Positions 976 to 12,091 of a DNA stretch of 64,000 nucleotides are shown here, one piece after another. The position numbers and the translations under genes were made by a program. Below the pieces are notes generated by a model. The model saw nothing but the letters and a program-made list of their open reading frames with translations. It had not been told where the DNA came from and searched no databases. The DNA is from an uncultured candidatus Porisulfidus sp. (lineage in GTDB: Bacteria; Pseudomonadota; Gammaproteobacteria; Poriferisulfidales; Poriferisulfidaceae). Position 1 is the stretch's first letter; every line of letters starts with the position of its first letter. The stretch lies in NCBI GenBank assembly GCA_965204575.1, contig OZ241993.1, forward strand, positions 256,001 through 320,000, in the 5' to 3' direction.

Positions 976-1233
976 CTAAAAATGTCGTGTTGCCAGTTTG
1001 GCTGCCATTTCCTGCTCGAACCGACGACTGTCGAACGGCTGCGGGTCGCCGCTTTCCTCGCCTTCGATCAATGCGGCACGGATCGCCTCAATGTCAGTCT
1101 GGCTTGCCTGATCGTGGCGGATCGGATCGCGGACATATTCGCTGTCATTGGCAGATTGTCCAGCTGTGACTTTCGCCTTGATCCGATTGTCTCGCTGTTC
1201 GGTAACGGTGATGGTTTTACGGGTTGTGCCCAT
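976..1233 (-). CDS. ParD-family (ribbon-helix-helix) antitoxin, orphan
   Basis: MGTTRKTITVTE...NDSEYVRDPIRHDQ...AIRAALIEGEESG; GGAGG RBS before ATG 1233; no ParE gene follows. Confidence 0.8.
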   Translation of the reverse strand: MGTTRKTITVTEQRDNRIKAKVTAGQSANDSEYVRDPIRHDQASQTDIEAIRAALIEGEESGDPQPFDSRRFEQEMAAKLATRHF

Positions 1234-1308
1234 GAGAACAGCCTCCAAGGAGTTACAAAAATACCATACTATCTGCAATTCCCTTAGAATTTCTGCCAGA
1301 GTCCCGCC

Positions 1309-1869
1309 ATGCCCCGCCTTTCCCGACACTGGAACCAGCGCGAAACGCCGCGAAGCGCAGACCAGACGGCCAGCGCCCTGTCGGTCAATATCTGGCGGCT
1401 TGCCAGCGATGCTCTGCTGGCGCTTGAGAACGAGGGATTCGAAACCGCCGACTGGTCGCAGCGATTGGACGTCATTGCGCAGTTTGCGATTTTCGGCGTG
1501 CACTTGGTCGACCGCGAAACCCAGTCACGATTGCCCGACGAAGAGCGCGCCCGGCTGATTTCCTCGCTGGCCCGGCACTTGGCCGCGCTGATGCAGGACA
1601 ACCGGTTGGAATGCGACGGCCCGGGAGAGCATGCGACCCGCTTCATCGAACAACTCGATGCGCAAGCCGAAACCTACGCCGGCTGTCAGTGGTCCGAAGA
1701 AGAGGGCCCTGGATTCGCGCTATGCCGGGAACTCGGCAATGCGGTGGCCAGCAGCATGGGAGAAAAGGACCAGGAATGGATCGCCACTTACGTCATCGAC
1801 CGCGAGGCGCCGAAGTTCGCGACTGCGCTGCGGCGGACTCTCCGAGGCTTGGTCGCGGGGAAACCATGA
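1309..1869 (+). CDS. Conserved hypothetical protein (186 aa)
   Basis: Protein-like composition and host-like codon use; resembles hypotheticals of sulfur-oxidising proteobacteria (from memory). Confidence 0.7.
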   Translation: MPRLSRHWNQRETPRSADQTASALSVNIWRLASDALLALENEGFETADWSQRLDVIAQFAIFGVHLVDRETQSRLPDEERARLISSLARHLAALMQDNRLECDGPGEHATRFIEQLDAQAETYAGCQWSEEEGPGFALCRELGNAVASSMGEKDQEWIATYVIDREAPKFATALRRTLRGLVAGKP

Positions 1870-1914
1870 CCGCGGCGGCGAGGGCGGCGTGCGCCCCGTG
1901 GGATTCAGGATGCC

Positions 1915-2226
1915 TTACAGAAGCCTGCGGTAGTCGCAGTCCAGGATCTCCGCCAGTTTCCTGGCGTTCGATTTTCCCAATGCCCGCTTGTTGTTTTCGA
2001 TTTCGGACAGATGGTGCTGGAGAATGTCGGTCCGACTGCCCAATTCTTCCTGCGTCAAATCCGCCCGCTGGCGGAACAGGCGCAAATAGTATCCGGAGGT
2101 CTGATAGTAATCGCCATGCCTCTGCTTGGCTTCGTCATGGACAACTTTCGCCGGAACCCGGTTTTCCACAGGCATCCGGTTTTCTGCCCGATACAAGCCC
2201 AAGGTTGAACGAATCATTTTTCCCAT
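1915..2226 (-). CDS. XRE-family HTH protein (HigA-like antitoxin), orphan
   Basis: YLRLFRQRADLTQEELG...HHLSEIENNKRALGKSNARKLAEILDCDYRRLL; start position uncertain. Confidence 0.75.
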   Translation of the reverse strand: MGKMIRSTLGLYRAENRMPVENRVPAKVVHDEAKQRHGDYYQTSGYYLRLFRQRADLTQEELGSRTDILQHHLSEIENNKRALGKSNARKLAEILDCDYRRLL

Positions 2227-2316
2227 GGAAGTCGTTGTCTTTCACTAAGCTTTACCAGCATTAGCAAGGAGCGAGATTATACTCATGTCTAACCTTGATT
2301 TACGTCCCCCATTATA

Positions 2317-2340
2317 TTACATACCTTACATATTTTACAT
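2317..2340 (+). promoter_or_regulatory. Three TTACAT direct repeats at 9-bp period, probable operator
   Basis: TTACAT at 2317, 2326 and 2335, just before RBS GGAGG (2345) and ATG 2354. Confidence 0.55.
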
Positions 2341-2353
2341 GTTGGGAGGTTTC

Positions 2354-2956
2354 ATGTATGCTCTACATCCCAACAAGACAAAGGGCAGAAAAATGGGCAA
2401 GTCCATCCTATCGACGGAGCCGATGACGGATCTCCTTTCAGAGCAGTTTCCGCCCTTGTCAAGCAGTGCGGAGAACTTTCTCCGCCAGCGCCCCCGGGAT
2501 GCGCGCATGGCAGTGGCCGTGGCTCTAGAGGCCGCCGCTCTTCAATGTGAAGCACGCGCCAATGAAGCTCTTGAAAAAATGGTCGAAGGGCTTAGGCCGC
2601 TCATCGTTCACCGACCAGAGAACCAAGAAATGCTCGGCGTTTCGGCAGCAGCAGCCCGACTGAAGGTGTCGCGCCCGACAATCTATGACTGGGTGGCGAA
2701 GAAAATATTGCTTGCATGGAAATCGACCAAACGCGGATTGACGATTCCTGCCGCACAGATCCTTGCTCCCGGCAAAGTCGTCCCGGGAATCGACAAGGTC
2801 CTAGGAATCATCGAAGACCCCGAACTTGCCTGGGCGTTCCTTTCCCGGGAATGGCCGTTTGCTGGAGAGCCCAAAACACCTCTGGAAAAACTAGCGGCTG
2901 ACCAAGTTGAGGAGGTTTTGGCTGCGGCACCCAGCTTCGGCACGACTTATACGTGA
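2354..2956 (+). CDS. Excisionase-like HTH protein with Xre/MbcA/ParS-like C-terminus (antitoxin type usually paired with a RES toxin)
   Basis: LGVSAAAARLKVSRPTIYDWV HTH; C-terminal LAWAFLSREWPF...TPLEKL; RBS supports ATG 2354. Confidence 0.65.
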   Translation: MYALHPNKTKGRKMGKSILSTEPMTDLLSEQFPPLSSSAENFLRQRPRDARMAVAVALEAAALQCEARANEALEKMVEGLRPLIVHRPENQEMLGVSAAAARLKVSRPTIYDWVAKKILLAWKSTKRGLTIPAAQILAPGKVVPGIDKVLGIIEDPELAWAFLSREWPFAGEPKTPLEKLAADQVEEVLAAAPSFGTTYT

Positions 2957-3255
2957 GCCGACTCTTGATGAACCGACCGGTCACCAAAATACGCAAAGAC
3001 CCGGAGCCCACAACTCCCCGTTCTTCCAATGGCGGCAGCGAGGATGGTAAACTCGAAAGTAGAGTTACGGCCTTGGAGATCCAAATGCGATACCTTGCAA
3101 CAAGAGAGGAAGTCAGGGAAATCGTGAATGAGTGTCTGGCTCCCATCAAGGAGCACTATGCCACCAAGACCTGGATTCTGGTCGGCTTCGTTCTGACCAT
3201 TGCATTTGTGATCGGGACAGGAGTCACCGTCGCGAGCATGCTGACGAACCAATAG
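2953..3255 (+). CDS. Short coiled-coil protein with C-terminal TM helix (LATREE/YATK motifs)
   Basis: GTGA overlap with upstream stop; LESRVTALEIQMRYLATREEV...; hydrophobic tail WILVGFVLTIAFVIG. Confidence 0.6.
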   Translation: MSRLLMNRPVTKIRKDPEPTTPRSSNGGSEDGKLESRVTALEIQMRYLATREEVREIVNECLAPIKEHYATKTWILVGFVLTIAFVIGTGVTVASMLTNQ

Positions 3256-3367
3256 CGCCTGCCTCAATTACCGTCAAGGACCAAGTACTCCTTTTCTAGG
3301 GTGCAAGCGGGAAACTCCTAGATCCAAAGCGCGAGCGACTGCACACGGGGCCGAGACCCTAACAGAA

Positions 3368-3559
3368 CTACGTCCAGTTCTCGAAATTACCGGTTTCCTT
3401 TTCCTGACCGTCCTCAAACCCGGCCTGGTAGGCATCAGTAATTCGCTGCTCTTCCCGCGTCGGGTGGCCCAGGTAGCCGCCTTGCCAGCCAAGAACATAC
3501 TCGGGGTCGACCCCCAGTTCCTCCATGCGGGTGACCGCGTCTCGATAGGTTTGATCCAT
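3368..3559 (-). CDS. Alvin_2107-family sulfur-globule oxidation protein
   Basis: MEELGVDPEYVLGWQGGYLGHPTREEQRITDAYQAGFEDG matches the family pattern GVDxEYxxGWxGGxLxxPxREEQR (from memory). Confidence 0.75.
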   Translation of the reverse strand: MDQTYRDAVTRMEELGVDPEYVLGWQGGYLGHPTREEQRITDAYQAGFEDGQEKETGNFENWT

Positions 3560-4106: not shown

Positions 4107-5480
4107 ATGCTCCACCTGCACGACACCGCAACCCGCAGGAAGGTTGCCTTCGCCCCGCTCGACCCGGAGCGCGTCACCTTGTACGTCTGCGGCCCCACCG
4201 TCTACGACCACATCCATATCGGCAACGCCCGCCCGCTGGTCGTGTTCGACGTGCTGGTCCGCGTGTTGCGATCCCTCTATCCCCAGGTCATCTATGCCCG
4301 CAACCTGACCGACATCGACGACAAGATCCTGGATCGGGCCGAACAGGAGAATTGCCCGTACGACGAACTGACCGCCCGCTACATCGAGGCATTCCACGAG
4401 GTGTGCGCCGCTCTCGGAGGCCTAGAGATCGACCTGGAGCCGCGTGCAACCGAAACCATCCCGGCCATGCTGGAGATGATCCAGACCCTGTTGGATTCGG
4501 ATCACGCCTATGAAGCGGACGGACACATCCTGTTCGCGGTGGACAGTTTCGACGGGTACGGCGAACTGTCCGGGCGGCGGGTGGAGGAAATGCACCCCGG
4601 GGCCCGGGTAGAAGTAGCCGAATACAAGCGCAATCCGGCGGATTTCGTGCTGTGGAAGCCTTCAACGCCGAAACAACCGGGCTGGGACAGCCCGTTCGGG
4701 CGGGGCCGGCCAGGCTGGCACCTGGAGTGCTCGTGCATGATCGCGCATCATCTCGGCCCGACCATCGACATCCACGGCGGCGGTCAGGACCTGGTGTTCC
4801 CGCACCACGAGAACGAGCGCGCGCAGAGTTGTTGCGCTCATCCCGGCGAGTCGTTCGTCCGGCTGTGGATGCATAACGGCTATGTCACGGTCGACGGCGA
4901 AAAAATGTCCAAGTCCATCGGCAATGTGCGCCAAGTCCGGGAGCTTCTCGATCACCATCCGGGCGAACTGCTGCGCCTCGCCCTGCTGCACGCGCATTAC
5001 CGCAAGCCGCTGGACTGGACGGATGACCTGCTCCTTCAGGCGCGTCAGATCCTGGACCGGCTGTACCGGGCCTGGCAGGATGCGGGAAGCCCGGAACCCG
5101 ACGAAACCGAGCCGGATGCGGAATTCCTGCAGGCCCTGCTTGACGACCTCAATACCCCGCTGGCCCTGCAGCACCTGCGGCACGAGGCGGCGGCCCTGGC
5201 CCATCTGCAGGGAACGCAGCGCACGGAGGCCGCCCGGCGGCTGTGCGCCGGCGCCCGGATGCTCGGCCTGTTCGGATCCGCGGCCGAAGACTGGTTCCAT
5301 GCCGGCGCGACGGCCGAGAGCCTGGACGATGCCGAGATCGAAGCCCTACTGGCCGAGCGGCAAGCCGCACGGGAAAACGGGGATTACGCGGCGGCCGACC
5401 GCATCCGCGATCAGCTGTTGGAGGCTGGAATCGCGGTGGAGGACCTAGCGGACGGCAGCCACTGGCGGCGGGTACGGTAG
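4107..5480 (+). CDS. cysS: Cysteine--tRNA ligase
   Basis: YVCGPTVYD, HIGN, GRPGWHLECS, DIHGGGQDLVFPHHENE, KMSKS. Confidence 0.98.
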   Translation: MLHLHDTATRRKVAFAPLDPERVTLYVCGPTVYDHIHIGNARPLVVFDVLVRVLRSLYPQVIYARNLTDIDDKILDRAEQENCPYDELTARYIEAFHEVCAALGGLEIDLEPRATETIPAMLEMIQTLLDSDHAYEADGHILFAVDSFDGYGELSGRRVEEMHPGARVEVAEYKRNPADFVLWKPSTPKQPGWDSPFGRGRPGWHLECSCMIAHHLGPTIDIHGGGQDLVFPHHENERAQSCCAHPGESFVRLWMHNGYVTVDGEKMSKSIGNVRQVRELLDHHPGELLRLALLHAHYRKPLDWTDDLLLQARQILDRLYRAWQDAGSPEPDETEPDAEFLQALLDDLNTPLALQHLRHEAAALAHLQGTQRTEAARRLCAGARMLGLFGSAAEDWFHAGATAESLDDAEIEALLAERQAARENGDYAAADRIRDQLLEAGIAVEDLADGSHWRRVR

Positions 5481-5511
5481 ACTGTGCGAATCAAACACTT
5501 CTCTTTGCAAA

Positions 5512-5519
5512 ATGTCTTC
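5512..5519 (+). repeat. Left 8-bp target-site duplication ATGTCTTC
   Basis: Identical to 6787-6794; both copies abut the inverted termini. Confidence 0.85.
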
Positions 5520-6786
5520 GGGAGTTATGCAGACTTGATACAGCCATGAAAGTCCATCGCACCGTCCGCTACCGCCTGCATCCCGGCTCACGCCGGAAAA
5601 ACCAGCAACTGCACGGCACCGCCGAAGCTTGTCGTTTCGTGTGGAACCACATGGTCGGCAAACTCAGGGACGAGTACGAGTTCGGAATCAAGCCGGATTT
5701 CCACTATTACTCGATGGGCAAGGTCTTCACCGTTCTGCGCCGTCACAGCTACAAGTGGTTGCAGGATTATTCGGCATATGTCGTCAAGAGTTCATTGCAA
5801 CCCATCGAGACGGCTTACAAGGAATTCTTCAAGGACGTGAAGACGGGTGGGAAACTCAACCGGAACCCCCCGCAATTCCACGGCAAGTGGACAACCAAGC
5901 CGAGTTTTCCAATCAACTATGTGTCGGCGAAGGTGACGGGAGAGAGCCTGTACGTGCAGAGAATCGGCTGGATGAAGCTGGTCGGCAACAACCCGGACCC
6001 GGACGGCGAATTCAAGTCCGGTCGCGTCTTGCAGGAATGCGGAAACTGGTACGCCTATCTCACTTACGAAGTGCAAGCCGAAGCCAGTCTCCCTCACGCC
6101 ATCAAGGAAGTGGGCATCGACCGCAATGTGAATGAAGACGGGTGGGCGGTATTATCGGACGGCACGAAGCATCCGGGGCCGGATTTGGAGAAGAAAACGG
6201 CACGGCGAAAACGCTACCAGCGCAAGATGGCGCGACAGGTGAAAGGGAGCAACCGCAGAAAGGTCACCAAGGTGAAGTTGCAGAAAGCATTCCGTGCGGA
6301 ATGCTTCGCCCGGTTGAACTGGGCGCACCACGTCAGCAAGAGCATTGCGTCAGAATACGATGTGGCATACATGGAGAAACTGAACATCGGGGACATGACG
6401 AAATCCGCCAAGGGAACGGTGGAGGAACCGGGTACGAACGTAAAAGCGAAGTCCGGGCTGAACCGGAAGATCCTGGCCAGCGCATGGGGCACGCTGGAGT
6501 TGTGCCTGGACTACAAGATGGAAGTGCGCCCTGTACCTCCGGCGTATACCAGCCAGACGTGCCATTCATGCGGGCACGTCGATGAGAAAAACAGAAATGG
6601 AACAGATTTCAAGTGCACCGCTTGCGGGCACGCGGACGATGCGGACGTGAACGCCGCATTGAACATTTTGGCCTTCGGGAATGGGGCGACTGGACGTGGA
6701 GACGGCGGGGTTGCCCGGTCTGAGAAGCGTCAAGAAATGGGACAATCTGGCAGGCGAGAGTCTGCCAAGTTATCTACATAAATCCC
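5520..6786 (+). mobile_element. Non-autonomous tnpB element 1 with terminal inverted repeats and 8-bp TSD (IS1595-like ends)
   Basis: Left end GGGAGTTATGCAGA (5520-5533) vs reverse complement of right end GGGATTTATGTAGA (6773-6786), 12/14; perfect ATGTCTTC direct repeat outside; only cargo is tnpB. Confidence 0.8.
5546..6781 (+). CDS. tnpB: RNA-guided endonuclease TnpB (411 aa)
   Basis: N-terminal RYRLHP...CRFVWN; RuvC motifs [20 protein letters not shown]; zinc finger CHSCG...CTACG. Confidence 0.93.
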
Positions 6787-6806
6787 ATGTCTTCTTTATT
6801 TTCTCC
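6660..6806 (+). ncRNA. Predicted omegaRNA/reRNA overlapping the tnpB 3' end (boundaries approximate)
   Basis: Hairpin TGGCAGGC-GAGA-GTCTGCCA (6748-6767, GNRA loop); position is typical of TnpB guide RNAs. Confidence 0.5.
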
Positions 6807-7257
6807 TCGGGAGAGTATCAAGCAAGTCGAAGAAGGGGATCAATTGGCCCCGAAATTCGATGAAAACGGGCTGATCCCCGTGGTGACCACCGACTACGAA
6901 TCCGGCGAAGTGCTGATGGTCGCGTACCAGAACGCCGAGGCGCTGGAGCGGACCATCCGGAGCGGCGAAGCCTGGTACTACAGCCGCAGCCGCCAATGCC
7001 TGTGGCACAAGGGCGCCACCAGCGGACTGGTGCAGAAAGTGCGCGAACTGCGCATCGACGACGACCAGGACACGGTCTGGATGCGCGTGACGGTCGCAGG
7101 CTCCGGCGCCAGTTGCCACGTCGGCTACCGCTCCTGCTTCTACCGCAAGGTGCCGACCGGGGATTCGGCCGGCCAAGCGCTGGAACACCTGGAACGCGAC
7201 AAAACCTTCGACCCCGATGAGGTCTACGGCGACGCTGAAAATCCGACCCGCCTGTAA
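6787..7257 (+). CDS. hisI: Phosphoribosyl-AMP cyclohydrolase
   Basis: [41 protein letters not shown]. Confidence 0.95.
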
Positions 7258-7271
7258 CCCCCGCACTGCCG

Positions 7272-10200
7272 ATGCCTTCGACCTTCCGTTTGCTGCTGAC
7301 ACGGCGGCTCGGCCCTTTCTTCTTCACCCAGCTGACCGGGGCCTACAACGACAACGTCTTCCGTAACGCGCTGGTCGTCCTGATCACCTACCGCATTACC
7401 GAACTGGCCGGATTCGGAAGCGAAGAACTGGTTGCCGCCTCCGCCGGGATCTTCCTGCTCCCTTTCCTGCTGTTCTCCGCCCTGGGCGGAAAACTGGCCG
7501 ATCACTTTCCGCGGCACCGGCTGATCCAGCACATCAAGCTCGCGGAATGCGCCCTGATGGCACTGACCTGGATCGGTTTTGCCACCGGGTCAGTCACCTT
7601 TCTGTTCGTCATCCTGTTCTTGACCGGACTGCAGTCCGCCCTGTTCGGTCCGGTGAAGTACGCCATCCTGCCGAACCTGCTGTCCCGGGCCGAACTGCTG
7701 GCCGGCAACGCCTGGATCGCGGTCGGCACGTTCATCTCCATCCTCGCCGGAAGCCTGACCGGAACTCTCGTAATGGGTGTTCCCGACGCCGCCCTGTGGG
7801 TGCCCGGCATCCTGGTGATCAGCGCCGGGGCCGGTTACCTGGCAAGCCACCGGATTCCGGCGCAGGTTCCCGCCGGCGCCGGTCTGCGGCTCTCGTTCGA
7901 GCCGTTCAGCGAAACCGCGCGGATCGTGCGAGAAGGCCTGAGCCAGCCTCGCCTGGCCTGGCTGATGCTCGCCATCAGCTGGTTCTGGATGATCGGGGTT
8001 GGCATGCTCGTTCAGTTGCCGCTGTTCGTCCGGGACGTGCTGGCCGGCAACGAGCAGGCATTGGCGGGCGCGCTTGCGATCTTCACCGTCGGCGTCGGGC
8101 TCGGTGCCCTGTTGTGCAACCGCTGGCTCGGCGGCACGGCGCGGGCGACCCTGGCACCCATATCCGCAGCGGCCTTGGGCGCCGGCTTCGTGTTGCTCAG
8201 CCTCGTTCCCCCGGCCGATGTTCCGCTTCGCGGATTCGCCGACCTGCTGGAGGACCCGCAGGCCGTAACCGCCCTCGGCATCCTGCTGGCGCTTGCCGTG
8301 GCGGGCGGTTTCTATGTTACGCCCCTGTACACCCTGGTGCAGCAGCGGGCGCCGGAGGACCGGCGCGCGCGGGTCATCGCCTGCAACAACATCCTCAATT
8401 CCATCTTCATGGCGCTGGCCTCGGCGACGTCCATCGTCATTTTCCAGTCCGGCGGCACGATCGTCACCGTGTGGCTGGCCATGGCCGCCACCGCTCTCCT
8501 GGCCGCACTGCTGTTGCTGCATTTCACGCAGGGCAGTTTCCGCCATGTCCTTTTGTGGCCGGTCGCGTCAGTCGTACTGATCACGGAAACGCCCCCGCCC
8601 GGTTCGCTGGTATTCGCCCGGCGTGGAAGCGCCTGGGTCGCCTGGGCGCTGGCTGCCACCATCCCCGGCAAACTTGAAATCCATGTTGCTCCCGCGCTGT
8701 TGCGCCGCGCGAGCCTGCGACTGCTCGCCTGCTGGGTCCGCCTGAAACCGCTGGACCCCGCGGCCCTGGACGACCAGTGGCCAGGCAATCAGGATGAACC
8801 CGCCCGCACCGTGCTGATCCTGCCGCCTTCCGGCCCCGAGGGCGAAGCTTCGCTGCTGGAATTGATGCAGACCGCCCGGGAGCGGTCCGGCCGCCCCGTC
8901 GAAGTCGCGTCCGTCAGTGACCCGGAACTCTACATGCCCCGCTTCTACCCGCGCATCCGGGTCGGGTTCGAAAACTGTCCGCTGCCGCCCCGCGCGGCCG
9001 ACGAGCCGGAAGCGCTCCGGCGCGATGCCCTCAAGATCTACGACCTGCTGTGTGAACTGGAATACCGGATGCACTGCCAGGAATGCACGGCATTGCAGTC
9101 CTTGTACGGTGCAGCCCGAAGGTTCGGGGCTGGCTATCCGATCCTGGCCGATCTGGAGCGGACCCTGACGTACCGGCAACTGCTCCAGGCGACCCACGCC
9201 GTCGCCCAGCTGCTTGAGCGGGCCCTGCCGAAGGCACAGGATACGGTCGGCATCCTGCTGCCGAACGCGACCGCCACGCCGATCACTTTTTTCGCCATGC
9301 ACGCGCTTCACCGCATCCCGGTCATGCTCAACTACACCGCCGGGCCAGCCAATGTCGCCAGTGCCTGCCGCACGGCCGGACTGACCCACGTCGTGACTTC
9401 CCGCCGGTTCGTCGAGAAGGCCGACCTTGGAGGCTTGACCGACGCCCTGGCCGGAGACTACGCCCTGCTGTGGCTGGAGGATCTGAGGCCGCAACTGAGC
9501 CTCGGCATGAAACTCAAGGCCGCCTGGCGCGCCATGCGGCCGCCCCCGAAAGGTGATCCCTCGGACCCCGCCGTAGTGCTGTTCACCTCCGGGTCGGAAG
9601 GCGAACCCAAAGGCGTCGTGCTGAGCCACCGAAACCTGCAGCGCAACCGTTGCCAGGTCCGCGCGGTGCTGAACCTGACTCCCCAGGACCACCTGCTGCT
9701 GTGCCTCCCCACCTTTCACTCGTTCGCCTTGGGCGTTGGCCTGCTGCTGCCGTTGATGGCCGGGCTGCGCTGCACCCTGTACCCCAGCCCCCTCCACTAC
9801 AAGCAGATCCCCGAACTGATCCGAAAGCACGATATCACCGTGTTCTTCTCCACCGACACGTTCCTGAACGGCTACGGGCAGGCGGCAAGCCCGGAAGACC
9901 TGCAAAGCCTGCGCTTGATCGTGGCCGGCGCCGAACCGCTCAAGCCGGGCACCCGGAAATTCTGGCAGGACCGTTTCGGTCTGACCGTCCACGAGGGCTA
10001 CGGCGTGACCGAAACCTCACCCGCGGTCAGTGCCAACACGTTTGCGTGCAACCGACCGGGCTCGGTCGGCCGCCTGATGCCGGATATCGAAGCGCGCCTG
10101 GAACCGCTGGACGACTCCCAGGACACCATCGACACCACCCGCGGGCGATTGTTTCTGCGCGGCCCGAACGTGATGTCCGGCTACTGGATGCCGGGGGAAA

Positions 10201-10607
10201 GCCGGCTATTGACCCCTCCGGAGGACGGCTGGCACGATACCGGCGACGTTGCCGAATTCGACGATGACGGATTCCTGAGCCTGCATGGCCGAGCCAAGCG
10301 GTTCGCCAAGATCGGAGGCGAGATGGTGTCGCTCGCCTACGTAGAGCAGCAGGTCAGCGAAGTCTGGCCGGAATACCGTCACATCGTCTGCGCCGTCAAC
10401 CACCCCACCCGAGGAGAGCAATTGGTCCTCATTACTGAGCATCCCGAGCCGGACCGGGGTCGGTTGAGACAGGCCCTGGGGGAACGGGGAGTGGGAGAGC
10501 TGGCGCGGCCCCGGCTGGTTTTGCCGGTCGAGGTTCTGCCGCTGCTTGGCAGCGGCAAACCGGACTTGCGGAAAGCACAGGAACTGGCGCTCTCGGTGCT
10601 ACACTAG
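7272..10607 (+). CDS. aas: LplT-like MFS transporter fused to Aas-like acyl-ACP synthetase (middle acyltransferase domain degenerate)
   Basis: N-terminal GAYNDNVFR...FGPVKYAILP MFS motifs; AMP-binding LFTSGSEGEPKGV, EGYGVTE, WHDTGD, LGSGKPD. Confidence 0.88.
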   Translation: MPSTFRLLLTRRLGPFFFTQLTGAYNDNVFRNALVVLITYRITELAGFGSEELVAASAGIFLLPFLLFSALGGKLADHFPRHRLIQHIKLAECALMALTWIGFATGSVTFLFVILFLTGLQSALFGPVKYAILPNLLSRAELLAGNAWIAVGTFISILAGSLTGTLVMGVPDAALWVPGILVISAGAGYLASHRIPAQVPAGAGLRLSFEPFSETARIVREGLSQPRLAWLMLAISWFWMIGVGMLVQLPLFVRDVLAGNEQALAGALAIFTVGVGLGALLCNRWLGGTARATLAPISAAALGAGFVLLSLVPPADVPLRGFADLLEDPQAVTALGILLALAVAGGFYVTPLYTLVQQRAPEDRRARVIACNNILNSIFMALASATSIVIFQSGGTIVTVWLAMAATALLAALLLLHFTQGSFRHVLLWPVASVVLITETPPPGSLVFARRGSAWVAWALAATIPGKLEIHVAPALLRRASLRLLACWVRLKPLDPAALDDQWPGNQDEPARTVLILPPSGPEGEASLLELMQTARERSGRPVEVASVSDPELYMPRFYPRIRVGFENCPLPPRAADEPEALRRDALKIYDLLCELEYRMHCQECTALQSLYGAARRFGAGYPILADLERTLTYRQLLQATHAVAQLLERALPKAQDTVGILLPNATATPITFFAMHALHRIPVMLNYTAGPANVASACRTAGLTHVVTSRRFVEKADLGGLTDALAGDYALLWLEDLRPQLSLGMKLKAAWRAMRPPPKGDPSDPAVVLFTSGSEGEPKGVVLSHRNLQRNRCQVRAVLNLTPQDHLLLCLPTFHSFALGVGLLLPLMAGLRCTLYPSPLHYKQIPELIRKHDITVFFSTDTFLNGYGQAASPEDLQSLRLIVAGAEPLKPGTRKFWQDRFGLTVHEGYGVTETSPAVSANTFACNRPGSVGRLMPDIEARLEPLDDSQDTIDTTRGRLFLRGPNVMSGYWMPGESRLLTPPEDGWHDTGDVAEFDDDGFLSLHGRAKRFAKIGGEMVSLAYVEQQVSEVWPEYRHIVCAVNHPTRGEQLVLITEHPEPDRGRLRQALGERGVGELARPRLVLPVEVLPLLGSGKPDLRKAQELALSVLH

Positions 10608-10770
10608 CTTTGGGGCTCATATACAATAATCCGCAAGCAGACCTTGTATATCCATTGACAGATCATCGGGGTCGCTTGACCGAACCGCGCCCGAAGGCCC
10701 GGCTCGGACAGCGGCGAACGCCCCTCCCTGTCCAGCCGCGCCAGTCCCCAACGCCAGTATGTTGAACGCG
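10592..10770 (-). ncRNA. Predicted omegaRNA of element 2 (boundaries approximate)
   Basis: Minus-strand hairpins CCGAGCCG-GGCC-TTCG-GGC-GCGGTTCGG (cUUCGg loop) and ATATACAA-GGTCTG-CTTG-CGGATT-A-TTGTATAT (gCUUGc loop). Confidence 0.5.
10604..10611 (+). repeat. Left 8-bp TSD of element 2 (CTAGCTTT)
   Basis: 7/8 match to CTAGTTTT at 12031-12038. Confidence 0.65.
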
Positions 10771-12030
10771 GCATTGATGTCCGCGTTCCCCGCGTATCCG
10801 CAGGATACGCATTCGAATCTCTCTCGCCGACGGTTCGCCTCCGCTACATGCCCGCATCGGTGGCAACGCTGGCTCGTGTACGCCGGGTCGACCGTCTCCA
10901 TCCGGTACGCCTTGTAGCCTAGCATGAAGCGCAACCGGCCCCAGCCGCTTTCCGCAATGCCTCGGTTCAGGGCGGATTTCGCGTTGATATGCTTGCCCGG
11001 CTTCTCCACCGTGCCCTTGGCCGACTTCATCATGTTCCTGATCTTCAGACCCTCCACGCAGACCGTCCCGAACCGGTTCGCCAAGTCGTGGCTGACATGG
11101 TGCCGCCAGTTGTCCCGGATGTAGGCGATCCTCCGGTACAGTTTCGCCACGATCTTTCGTTCCTTCTCGCGACGGTGCGAATTCACCTGGATGGTTTTAC
11201 CTTGTCTGGTTAGCCTAGGCTCTCCATCCGCGTCCAAAAGGGGCACCCGTTGGCGGCGGTCCATCTTTCGCTTATGCCGTTTCAGTTTTGTTTCAAGATC
11301 GGAGACGTCCGGCATGAAAATTCGGTCGGGCTCCGTGGTGGCCACGTTCCACTTCCCCATGTCCAGCCCGACCGCCTCGCCGTTGTCCTCCGGTTTCGTA
11401 TCCGGTACTTCCCAGAACACCGACACATACCACTTCCCGTTCGGAGGCTTGACCACCACGGCCTGTTTTGCCTCGCCGTAAGCCCATGGATCACCACCCT
11501 GACGGTGGATCGGCACCCAACCCACCTTGGTCACGTAGAGTTTGCCGTCCGCGATCCGCACGTTCTGCGGAATCGTGAACGAGTCGCCGTCTTCCTTGTG
11601 CTTGAACCTCGGAAAGCTACACTTGCCCTTCCTGGCTTCCTTCATGGCATCCGCATACCGTTTCAGCACATACCGCACTTCCGCATACGGCAACTCCCTC
11701 AGCCATTCGTGGCCTTCGCCGTTGCGCAGCCTCGTGAATGCCAGGCCCAGGGTGAAGAAAGTCGGCGAAGGCTTTTCGCCTTTCCCTTCTTTATAGGCTT
11801 TCATCGCATCCCGGTTCCGTCCAATGGCCCAGTTCCAGACGTAGCGGTTCGCCCCGGCGATGCCGGACAATAACTGAGCCCGGCGCAAGGTGCCGGGATA
11901 CAGGCGATAGACGGACGAACGGATCATGCAGGGATTATGCCATGCCGGAAACCGACCTGCTAAAGATGGGATAAGATATTGAATATATACGGATTATCAT
12001 GAGTCTTTCGGATTATCGTATACAATTCCA
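10612..12030 (-). mobile_element. Non-autonomous tnpB element 2 with terminal inverted repeats and near-perfect 8-bp TSD
   Basis: GGGGCTCATATACAATAATCCGCAAG (10612-10637) vs reverse complement of 12005-12030, TGGAATTGTATACGATAATCCGAAAG; inner 18 bp 16/18 identical; TSD 7/8. Confidence 0.72.
10617..11927 (-). CDS. tnpB: RNA-guided endonuclease TnpB (436 aa)
   Basis: YRLYP...NRYVWN; RuvC motifs GLDMG, CVEGL, NADINAAFNI; zinc finger CHRCG...CVSCG. Confidence 0.93.
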   Translation of the reverse strand: MIRSSVYRLYPGTLRRAQLLSGIAGANRYVWNWAIGRNRDAMKAYKEGKGEKPSPTFFTLGLAFTRLRNGEGHEWLRELPYAEVRYVLKRYADAMKEARKGKCSFPRFKHKEDGDSFTIPQNVRIADGKLYVTKVGWVPIHRQGGDPWAYGEAKQAVVVKPPNGKWYVSVFWEVPDTKPEDNGEAVGLDMGKWNVATTEPDRIFMPDVSDLETKLKRHKRKMDRRQRVPLLDADGEPRLTRQGKTIQVNSHRREKERKIVAKLYRRIAYIRDNWRHHVSHDLANRFGTVCVEGLKIRNMMKSAKGTVEKPGKHINAKSALNRGIAESGWGRLRFMLGYKAYRMETVDPAYTSQRCHRCGHVAEANRRRERFECVSCGYAGNADINAAFNILALGTGAAGQGGAFAAVRAGPSGAVRSSDPDDLSMDIQGLLADYCI

Positions 12031-12091
12031 CTAGTTTTCGAGATATAACGGTGAATACCCGCTCCTTTGGAACACCAATTGGGAGGTGCGG

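Follow-up and report, generated by a model that had tools for sequence, protein, structure and literature searches.

TnpB is the ancestor of Cas12, and its travels are usually explained by a partnership with the Y1 and serine transposases of the scarless IS605 and IS607 elements. In the sections of a 2026 review that deal with these elements, IS200/IS605 and IS607 are described as having neither terminal inverted repeats (TIRs) nor target-site duplications (TSDs), elements with TnpB only are classed with IS200/IS605, and ISL2, IS630 and IS1031 are listed as partners of the DDE type (PMC13565253). The main text of Altae-Tran et al. 2023 reports TnpBs that are associated with DDE transposases and bounded by inverted terminal repeats (DDE-1 to DDE-6), as well as solo TnpBs that have the same ends and for which mobilization in trans was suggested; IS630 is the sole DDE family named in that main text, where ‘IS1595’ does not occur (PMC10691335). 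Here we analyze a stretch of 64,000 nt, referred to as the window, from an uncultured candidatus Porisulfidus sp. (assembly GCA_965204575.1, contig OZ241993.1, positions 256,001 to 320,000, forward strand). It contains a 1267-bp element, at window positions 5520-6786, with tnpB as the sole gene between its ends. The explanation that best accommodates all observations, and in which we place strong confidence, is that the element is a transposase-less IS1595 cassette that carries tnpB with a 3′ omegaRNA and is mobilized in trans.

The element is enclosed by an exact 8-bp direct repeat, ATGTCTTC. The visible arms of its TIRs match at 12/14 positions and are followed by CTTG beyond a 3-nt gap, and the right end reads CAAG (6766-6769), TTA, TCTACATAAATCCC (6773-6786) and then ATGTCTTC. 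The initial annotation of this DNA had given the same coordinates, arms and repeat, and its statement that no transposase lies within the element is borne out by the gene listing, which has tnpB only. When 30 related genomes were searched with window 4700-7600, the flanking genes cysS and hisI were found to abut in 14 of the 15 genomes of the same genus, the fifteenth (76% complete) giving no match; in eight of these same-genus genomes the two flank matches overlap by 8-9 nt precisely at the octamer. Junction sequences were obtained for 9/11 loci, the remaining two (L027 and L028) having no anchor match. In four relatives (G011, G003, G005 and G002) the empty site is ...ctttgcaaa ATGTCTTC tttatttt..., with one octamer, and the empty allele that had been predicted from the window, ...TTTGCAAA-ATGTCTTC-TTTATT..., thus exists in exactly that form. 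Five further relatives have a single variant octamer (ATGTCCTC, ATGCCATC and, three times, ATGGCTTC). Since the empty sites of relatives hold a single octamer, the 8-bp repeat is a true TSD. In our reading, DDE-type transposition brought the cassette into the first hisI codons, and 8 bp of target were duplicated in the process, as is observed. The 3′ end of the element recurs, 98% identical, elsewhere in G011, a genome in which the cysS-hisI site is unoccupied. This indicates recent movement or transfer of the window element.

How general is this arrangement? The genome to which the window belongs (G000) is one contig of 1.82 Mb, 98.75% complete, and its 16 tnpB loci fall into three lineages (seven of lineage 1, three of lineage 2 and six of lineage 3). 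Lineage 1 consists there of the window copy, six other full-length copies (73-82% identity) and one 5′ fragment; the reading frame is intact in five of these seven full-length copies. Twenty further lineage-1 copies were fetched from genomes of the same genus, and ends were defined for 24 independent insertions. For lineages 2 and 3, and for the IS1595 loci treated below, ends were called by a joint TIR-plus-TSD scan in which spurious low-score pairs (TIR 15-18/24, TSD at most 5/8) were not counted. The flank repeats of the 24 insertions match at 8/8 in eight cases, 7/8 in six, 6/8 in two, 5/8 in two and at most 3/8 in six; a repeat of at least 7/8 is thus present at 14/24 sites, the chance for one random pair being about 4e-4. 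The duplicated octamer differs from site to site, as in the 8/8 duplications TGGATATA, CATGTTTA, CAATATAC, ATCCGATG, ATCTGAGG, GTATATTA and ATGCGTTT. Lineage-1 ends are inverted repeats of 24-29 nt with the common tip GGGAATTAT and, in most of them, a TTGACA box, and the similarity between copies stops precisely at ...TTCCC. Six subfamilies can be distinguished, within which left and right arms have changed together; this covariation suggests that both ends are selected as a pair. The window copy belongs to subfamily D. Compared with the intact subfamily-D copy L060, its left end is without 26 nt, including most of the TTGACA box, and the 12/14 repeat is consequently what is left of one that measured about 26 nt. 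Lineages 2 and 3 have flank repeats of at least 7/8 at 6/9 loci. The elements of lineage 2 are 1419 bp long, with duplications CTATAAAT (8/8) and AAAACTAG/AAAGCTAG (7/8); those of lineage 3 measure 1458-1459 bp, two of their duplications (ATAATAGG and CTTCTAAA) matching at 8/8 and another two at 7/8. Other tnpB loci, in this genome and in relatives, thus carry TIRs with an 8-bp TSD, as the initial annotation had proposed to verify. Sixteen tnpB loci represent an unusually high TnpB load for a symbiont genome of only 1.8 Mb.

What moves these cassettes? Genes for IS1595 DDE transposases occur in 13/15 genomes of the same genus and 7/7 of family f3, and in 0/7 of family f2. We scanned 38 IS1595 loci for ends, and 16 of them have repeats of at least 22/24 together with flank repeats of 7-8/8. 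Three cases carry decisive weight. The first is an element of 2680 bp in the same genus (L029, G005, positions 44-2723), with a 24/24 TIR, an 8/8 TSD and an IS1595 transposase that scores 200 bits with NF033547 against a cut-off of 75. Both of its ends read GGGAATTATGTAGCAAAATCTGCAAG without deviation, a sequence that is identical, over all 26 nt, to the end of TnpB subfamily A; a search for this sequence in L029 returned two matches at 0 mismatches, with 0 expected, and cassettes of TnpB subfamily A with 8/8 TSDs (L059 and L064) occur in the same genome. Two IS1595 elements of 1246 bp in G013 (L145 and L146) have ends that match subfamily D, that of the window, at 23/26. The right end of the window copy, read as its reverse complement, agrees with L145 at 22/26 positions and with the L060 left end at 23/26. 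In L037 (G015), an IS1595 element of 2.4 kb whose passenger is of the methyltransferase-T5orf172 type, the ends are close to subfamily F, and those of the IS1595 locus L039 are also related to cassette ends. By NF033547, and by PF12762 plus PF12760, the partner transposases belong to the IS1595 family; this assignment is made at family level, whereas the initial annotation had named the ISNwi1 group within it. IS1595 transposase genes with the same termini, which the initial annotation had suggested looking for, are hence present in the genus (26/26 for L029, 23/26 for L145/L146). The window element itself has no DDE transposase, with the IS1595 catalytic domain and an N-terminal zinc ribbon, between its ends, which sets it apart from autonomous IS1595 elements, and it agrees with a non-autonomous IS1595 cargo cassette in its matching TIRs and its 8-bp TSD. 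Based on the identical ends of autonomous IS1595 elements in the same genus, the tnpB cassettes most likely depend for their movement on IS1595 transposases whose genes lie elsewhere; these enzymes would recognize the shared GGGAATTAT...TTGACA-type TIRs and act in trans. The earlier proposal that tnpB and its omegaRNA reside in a non-autonomous IS1595-like cassette mobilized in trans is thereby supported, at the level of sequence comparison, by TIRs and TSDs, shared ends and empty alleles.

The IS1595 elements show features of their own. The passenger of L029 is a DNA methyltransferase fused to an HNH domain, and the HNH part matches IscB/Cas9 HNH models weakly. In G015 an autonomous IS1595 element (L069, about 1008-3416) encodes a methyltransferase fused to a T5orf172 domain. 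In G030 a 753-bp element with an IS1595-like open reading frame (ORF) of 226 aa is present in seven copies (L135-L141); their ends are inverted at 22/24, of another type (GGTACTTGACTAG...), with flank repeats of 7-8/8. This ORF is unusually short for an IS1595 transposase, and the element appears to have been active recently.

Several observations weigh against an IS1595 cassette moved in trans. No confident ends of the cassette type were found at 22/38 IS1595 loci, which implies that many IS1595 genes in these genomes belong to other subgroups. A search of 69 TnpB loci detected no IS1595 transposase in cis, and the link to IS1595 thus rests on shared ends. The only IS1595 transposase gene of G000 is frameshifted (203 + 103 aa); the left end of this locus (L015) resembles TnpB subfamily F and a right end was not found in the end scans. 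With its sole IS1595 transposase frameshifted and without a detected right end, the copies of this genome cannot move now. No TSD is recognizable at 6/24 lineage-1 sites, the ends of three loci of lineages 2 and 3 (L117, L127 and L128) were not resolved in the joint scan, and the lineage-1 copies of G000, at 73-82% identity, are old. As to the setting of the frameshifted gene (G000:C1 about 1,081,600-1,083,500; L015 1090-2962), it is followed by a gene for an N6/N4 DNA methyltransferase.

The arrangement extends beyond the genus. In metagenome-assembled genomes (MAGs) of Caldilineaceae (Chloroflexota), TnpB relatives of about 40% identity lie in elements with ends GGGGCTTATATAGATAACTAGACA, and 3/4 of these loci have 8/8 TSDs and TIRs matching at 21-24/26; at the Caldilineaceae IS1595 locus L105 only the left tip matches. 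Relatives of similar identity (about 40%) in a Pseudomonadales MAG (L092-L094 and L100) form elements of 1.55 kb bounded by long inverted repeats of another type (about 40 bp, GGTAGTGCTG...TTTTGAC...). No target duplication could be defined at these four loci, and the IS1595 elements of that genome have different ends. The features of the window are collected in Table 1. Among them is a second TnpB cassette, 3.8 kb further downstream, which is positioned immediately after a large acyltransferase/acyl-ACP synthetase-like ORF (7272..10607).

Table 1. Positions, in window coordinates, of the tnpB cassette, its flanks and the second cassette
Feature	Position	Strand	Remarks
cysS, flanking gene	4107..5480	+	outside the element
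AAA, 5′ of the left TSD, candidate target-adjacent motif	5509..5511	+	strand-specific purine motif
Left TSD copy, ATGTCTTC	5512..5519	+	single copy in the empty sites of relatives
Left TIR, GGGAGTTATGCAGA (5520-5533) plus CTTG (5534-5537)	5520..5537	+	eroded
tnpB, RNA-guided endonuclease of the TnpB family	5546..6781	+	411 aa; stop codon within the right TIR tip
Candidate omegaRNA scaffold	6552..6786	+	overlaps the tnpB 3′ end; 5′ limit approximate
Internal GGGAAT	6677..6682	+	helix 6; predicted partner is the terminal ATTCCC-type TIR tip
Hairpin TGGCAG / CTGCCA	6748..6767	+	helix 11; abuts the inner edge of the right TIR; covaries between subfamilies
Right TIR	6761..6786	+	26 nt by family comparison; similarity between copies all ends at 6786
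Right TSD copy	6787..6794	+	first 8 nt of hisI, including ATG
Predicted omegaRNA guide	6787..6806	+	inferred; TSD plus about 12 nt of flank
hisI, flanking gene	6787..7257	+	outside the element; start codon regenerated by the TSD
Second TnpB cassette, lineage 2, 1419 bp	10612..12030	-	TIR type GGGAATTGTATACGATAATCCGCAAA; the AAAACTAG/AAAGCTAG copy
tnpB of the second cassette	10617..11927	-	436 aa, intact
Flank repeats of the second cassette	10604-10611 and 12031-12038		7/8

The protein encoded in the first cassette matches the Pfam families Cas12f1-like_TNB, OrfB_IS605 and HTH_OrfB_IS605 and passes the NF040570 guided_TnpB model (204.6 bits against a cut-off of 100). Its residues 9-384 align with ISDra2 TnpB (8bf8/8exa, E 7e-28), and the acidic residues (GIDRN, YMEKL and the third motif) and both CxxC pairs fall in register. 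The RuvC D-E-D triad, which the first reading of the sequence had called intact, thus aligns with those residues of ISDra2 TnpB that we take to be catalytic. Across copies, codon positions 1 and 2 of tnpB are more conserved than position 3, as expected under purifying selection. Towards the 3′ end of the gene a second layer of constraint becomes apparent: in 25 copies, third-codon-position conservation is 0.90-0.94 at ORF nt 1081-1200 and 0.61-0.86 upstream, with its minimum in the 5′ half. Such raised third-position conservation is a signature of an overlapping RNA. A consensus fold was derived for the 3′-terminal 270 nt of 26 copies; 98.5% of its cells are paired, as against 27-46% when the partners are slid. 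One-sided changes in this fold mostly keep G-U pairs, while double changes are concentrated in the hairpin that abuts the right repeat (helix 11), where 3/5 pairs show changes on both sides. The fold also pairs an internal GGGAAU with a terminal AUUCCC about 130 nt downstream, which recalls the -130/-3 pseudoknot reported, in the part of the paper concerned with guide RNA, for a published TnpB (PMC10711439). In the window copy the TIR tip is AATCCC, so that one predicted pair of helix 6 is broken. The tips differ in lineages 2 and 3 and in the Caldilineaceae elements, and in each of these groups the interior contains a complement to the group's own tip. This pairing of tip and interior is suggestive only. 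A cross-lineage covariation of it was considered and dropped, because the internal partner in lineage 1 lies at a different offset from that of the other groups and because the partners are glycine codons opposite C-rich tips, for which a chance origin is possible.

Other results do not add to the case for the scaffold. Most of the predicted pairs never vary, and an Rfam scan of window 5000-7400, at E up to 1, gave no match. In two public metatranscriptomes, in which fewer than one tenth of the words are present, contigs cover nothing beyond hisI and short, conserved stretches of tnpB from relatives. Taken together, the alignment and the fold suggest an omegaRNA scaffold that seems to end at the tip of the repeat. 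The right repeat overlaps the final codons of tnpB with its stop codon, and would then also include the scaffold's 3′ end. Combined with the architecture of the TnpB reRNA as set out in the relevant part of PMC10711439, a scaffold ending at the TIR tip places the predicted guide directly beyond it. Such a guide, transcribed from the flank, would have the TSD octamer as its first bases and would give the TnpB-omegaRNA complex a match to the unoccupied site. In the window, the predicted guide would equal the first bases of the hisI mRNA.

On the opposite side of the element, the bases 5′ of the duplication stand where a target-adjacent motif (TAM) would be expected. Position -1 is a purine at 23/24 sites, in comparison with 10/24 on the mirrored side (p 9e-5) and 16/32 at the ends of the 16 autonomous IS1595 elements (p 3e-4 vs 23/24). 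Position -3 is a purine at 22/24 sites, vs 13/24 on the mirrored side and 13/32 at autonomous ends (p 8.5e-5); Fisher p values for the motif span 9e-5 to 8e-3. Six lineage-2 and lineage-3 insertions all have G at position -1 (6/6). A transposase preference should be symmetric, and the one-sided signal is thus TAM-like. The purine-rich 3-nt motif may act as TAM for the nuclease, and since the occupied site has CCC at the TAM position, the element would be spared by its own enzyme. We tentatively combine these elements, at somewhat less than an even chance, into a mechanism in which the IS1595 tip doubles as the omegaRNA 3′ end, the guide starts with the variable 8-bp TSD and an R-N-R TAM confines cutting to empty sites. 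This would make the cassettes a prokaryotic counterpart of Fanzor1 and document a route of TnpB from IS605/IS607 to DDE transposons, in Proteobacteria and Chloroflexota.

The purine motif might instead reflect a target preference of the IS1595 transposase, or intergenic context, in which case it would be no TAM and TnpB would have no role in the spread of the cassettes. We regard this as quite conceivable, though less likely than not. The autonomous control set is small and of different composition, 10/16 of its elements coming from the AT-richer G030, and many insertions lie directly after the stop codons of upstream genes. Moreover, cut-and-paste DDE elements are said, in the passage of the review that treats them, to gain less from a homing nuclease, because their excision already leaves a break (PMC13565253). 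Set against this are the orientation of the motif relative to tnpB, with 23/24 on one side vs 10/24 on the other, its lack of a counterpart at either end of the 16 autonomous IS1595 elements, the invariant G at six insertions of lineages 2 and 3, and the purifying selection that acts on tnpB across copies.

A different question is the present state of the window copy. The left end of the intact copy L006 contains a promoter-like TTGACA-16-GACAAT with the -35 hexamer inside the TIR; the left repeat of intact copies may thus supply the -35 box of the tnpB promoter. No promoter-like site was found at the left end of the window copy. There, tnpB, cysS and hisI are co-oriented, the tnpB stop codon is 5 nt upstream of the hisI ATG, and tnpB and hisI are probably co-transcribed. 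The tnpB gene of the window is probably expressed by read-through from cysS, and the element is probably a poor transposition substrate. Having lost 26 nt and the promoter at its left end, in a genome whose sole IS1595 transposase gene is frameshifted, the copy is probably stranded. All of these features would fit an element that is a fossil and no longer transposes, with any retention of its tnpB owed to a regulatory or host-level function under read-through from cysS. Such a fate appears rather unlikely to us, as the TSD shows no mismatch, an uninterrupted ORF still encodes the catalytic residues and the 98% identical twin at another site in G011 points to a recent insertion. It concerns present activity and is compatible with an origin as an IS1595 cassette. 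As a consequence of the insertion, hisI has been deprived of its native upstream sequence (window 6779-6794).

Could the cassettes be moved by a different DDE family that also makes 8-bp duplications, their IS1595-like ends being convergent? Several IS families do give duplications of this length, no transposase was found in cis at the TnpB loci, and our comparison of partner ends covered the IS1595 elements among DDE families. Convergence would nonetheless have to produce the 26-nt identity at one end, the matches of 22-23/26 at others and the equal TSD length, all shared with elements defined by NF033547/PF12762 in the same genus, and we consider it very improbable. An ordinary TnpB-only element of IS200/IS605 (IS1341 group) or IS607, served in trans by a Y1 or serine TnpA and with repeats that are incidental, can practically be dismissed: the protein is a typical TnpB, and the review cited above places TnpB-only elements with IS200/IS605 (PMC13565253), but the TIRs covary, flank repeats of at least 7/8 are present at 14/24 sites, the empty sites prove the duplication, and the protein scores below the NCBI cut-offs specific for IS200/IS605 (152.7 vs 425) and IS607 (76 vs 350). 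Y1 TnpA (PF01797) and serine recombinase (Resolvase, PF00239) each gave 0 matches in the 98.75%-complete, single-contig genome, with control genomes giving matches in both searches. Membership in IS200/IS605, whose elements insert 3′ of a fixed target of 4-5 nt, was rejected because TIRs and a variable 8-bp TSD are present and a Y1 gene is not, and membership in IS607 because there is no serine recombinase and TIRs and a TSD are present.

What are the implications of a TnpB that travels on IS1595-type ends? This mode of travel has rarely been described for such nucleases in bacteria, and Candidatus Porisulfidus, a genus of sponge symbionts in which the tnpB genes examined travel on IS1595-type ends, offers a tractable bacterial system for TnpB on transposons with TIRs and TSDs. 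The comparative evidence is unusually clean and yields a testable hypothesis on guide and TAM for a transposon that makes duplications. Three questions are raised: what benefit an RNA-guided nuclease brings to a DDE transposon whose excision already leaves a break, how a guide is defined when insertion duplicates a variable 8-bp target, and how TnpB came onto transposons with TIRs and TSDs, as also happened with the eukaryotic Fanzors. For annotation, the label ‘IS200/IS605-family TnpB’ that automatic pipelines would assign is wrong for the element that carries the gene. Additionally, such nucleases, being compact and perhaps having a short purine TAM, may be of interest for genome editing.

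How do these cassettes compare with known systems? With IS1341-group TnpB-only elements they share a length of about 1.3 kb, tnpB as the only gene and a 3′ omegaRNA, which is a candidate here. That group is characterized, in the review's description, by hairpin ends, dependence on Y1 TnpA and the lack of TIRs and TSDs (PMC13565253), features that were tested at our locus and do not apply to it. With IS1595 elements that have passenger genes they share IS1595 TIRs, an 8-bp TSD and cargo inside, the cargo being a methyltransferase in L029 and L037. They differ from simple passengers of this kind in that the predicted guide RNA of the nuclease overlaps the right TIR and exits through it, which ties the cargo to the end of the transposon. 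The DDE-associated TnpBs of Altae-Tran et al. are similar in having inverted repeats, a TnpB 3′ end near the transposon end and solo copies that share ends; theirs, as far as the main text describes them, have an adjacent DDE gene, whereas here the partner is IS1595 and was in cis at 0/69 loci (PMC10691335). The initial annotation had spoken of a candidate new class of RNA-guided transposon. This was too strong, given that DDE-associated and solo TnpBs with inverted repeats were already published in 2023, in the main text of that study (PMC10691335). A literature search, which for Altae-Tran et al. covered the main text, returned no description of TnpB in IS1595-type or ISNwi1 elements or in DDE elements that are non-autonomous. 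DDE-linked TnpBs being known, what appears to be new is the occurrence of TnpB and its putative omegaRNA as cargo of IS1595-type cassettes. Functionally, their nearest analogues are the eukaryotic Fanzor1 elements. As described in the portion of PMC10711439 devoted to them, Fanzor1 and Fanzor2* elements likewise place a nuclease of the TnpB family in non-autonomous cut-and-paste elements with TIRs and TSDs, with a guide RNA that exits via the TIR. Fanzors are eukaryotic or viral and are reported to have the TSD folded into the RNA scaffold (PMC10711439), whereas the cassettes described here are bacterial and their variable TSD would have to join the guide.

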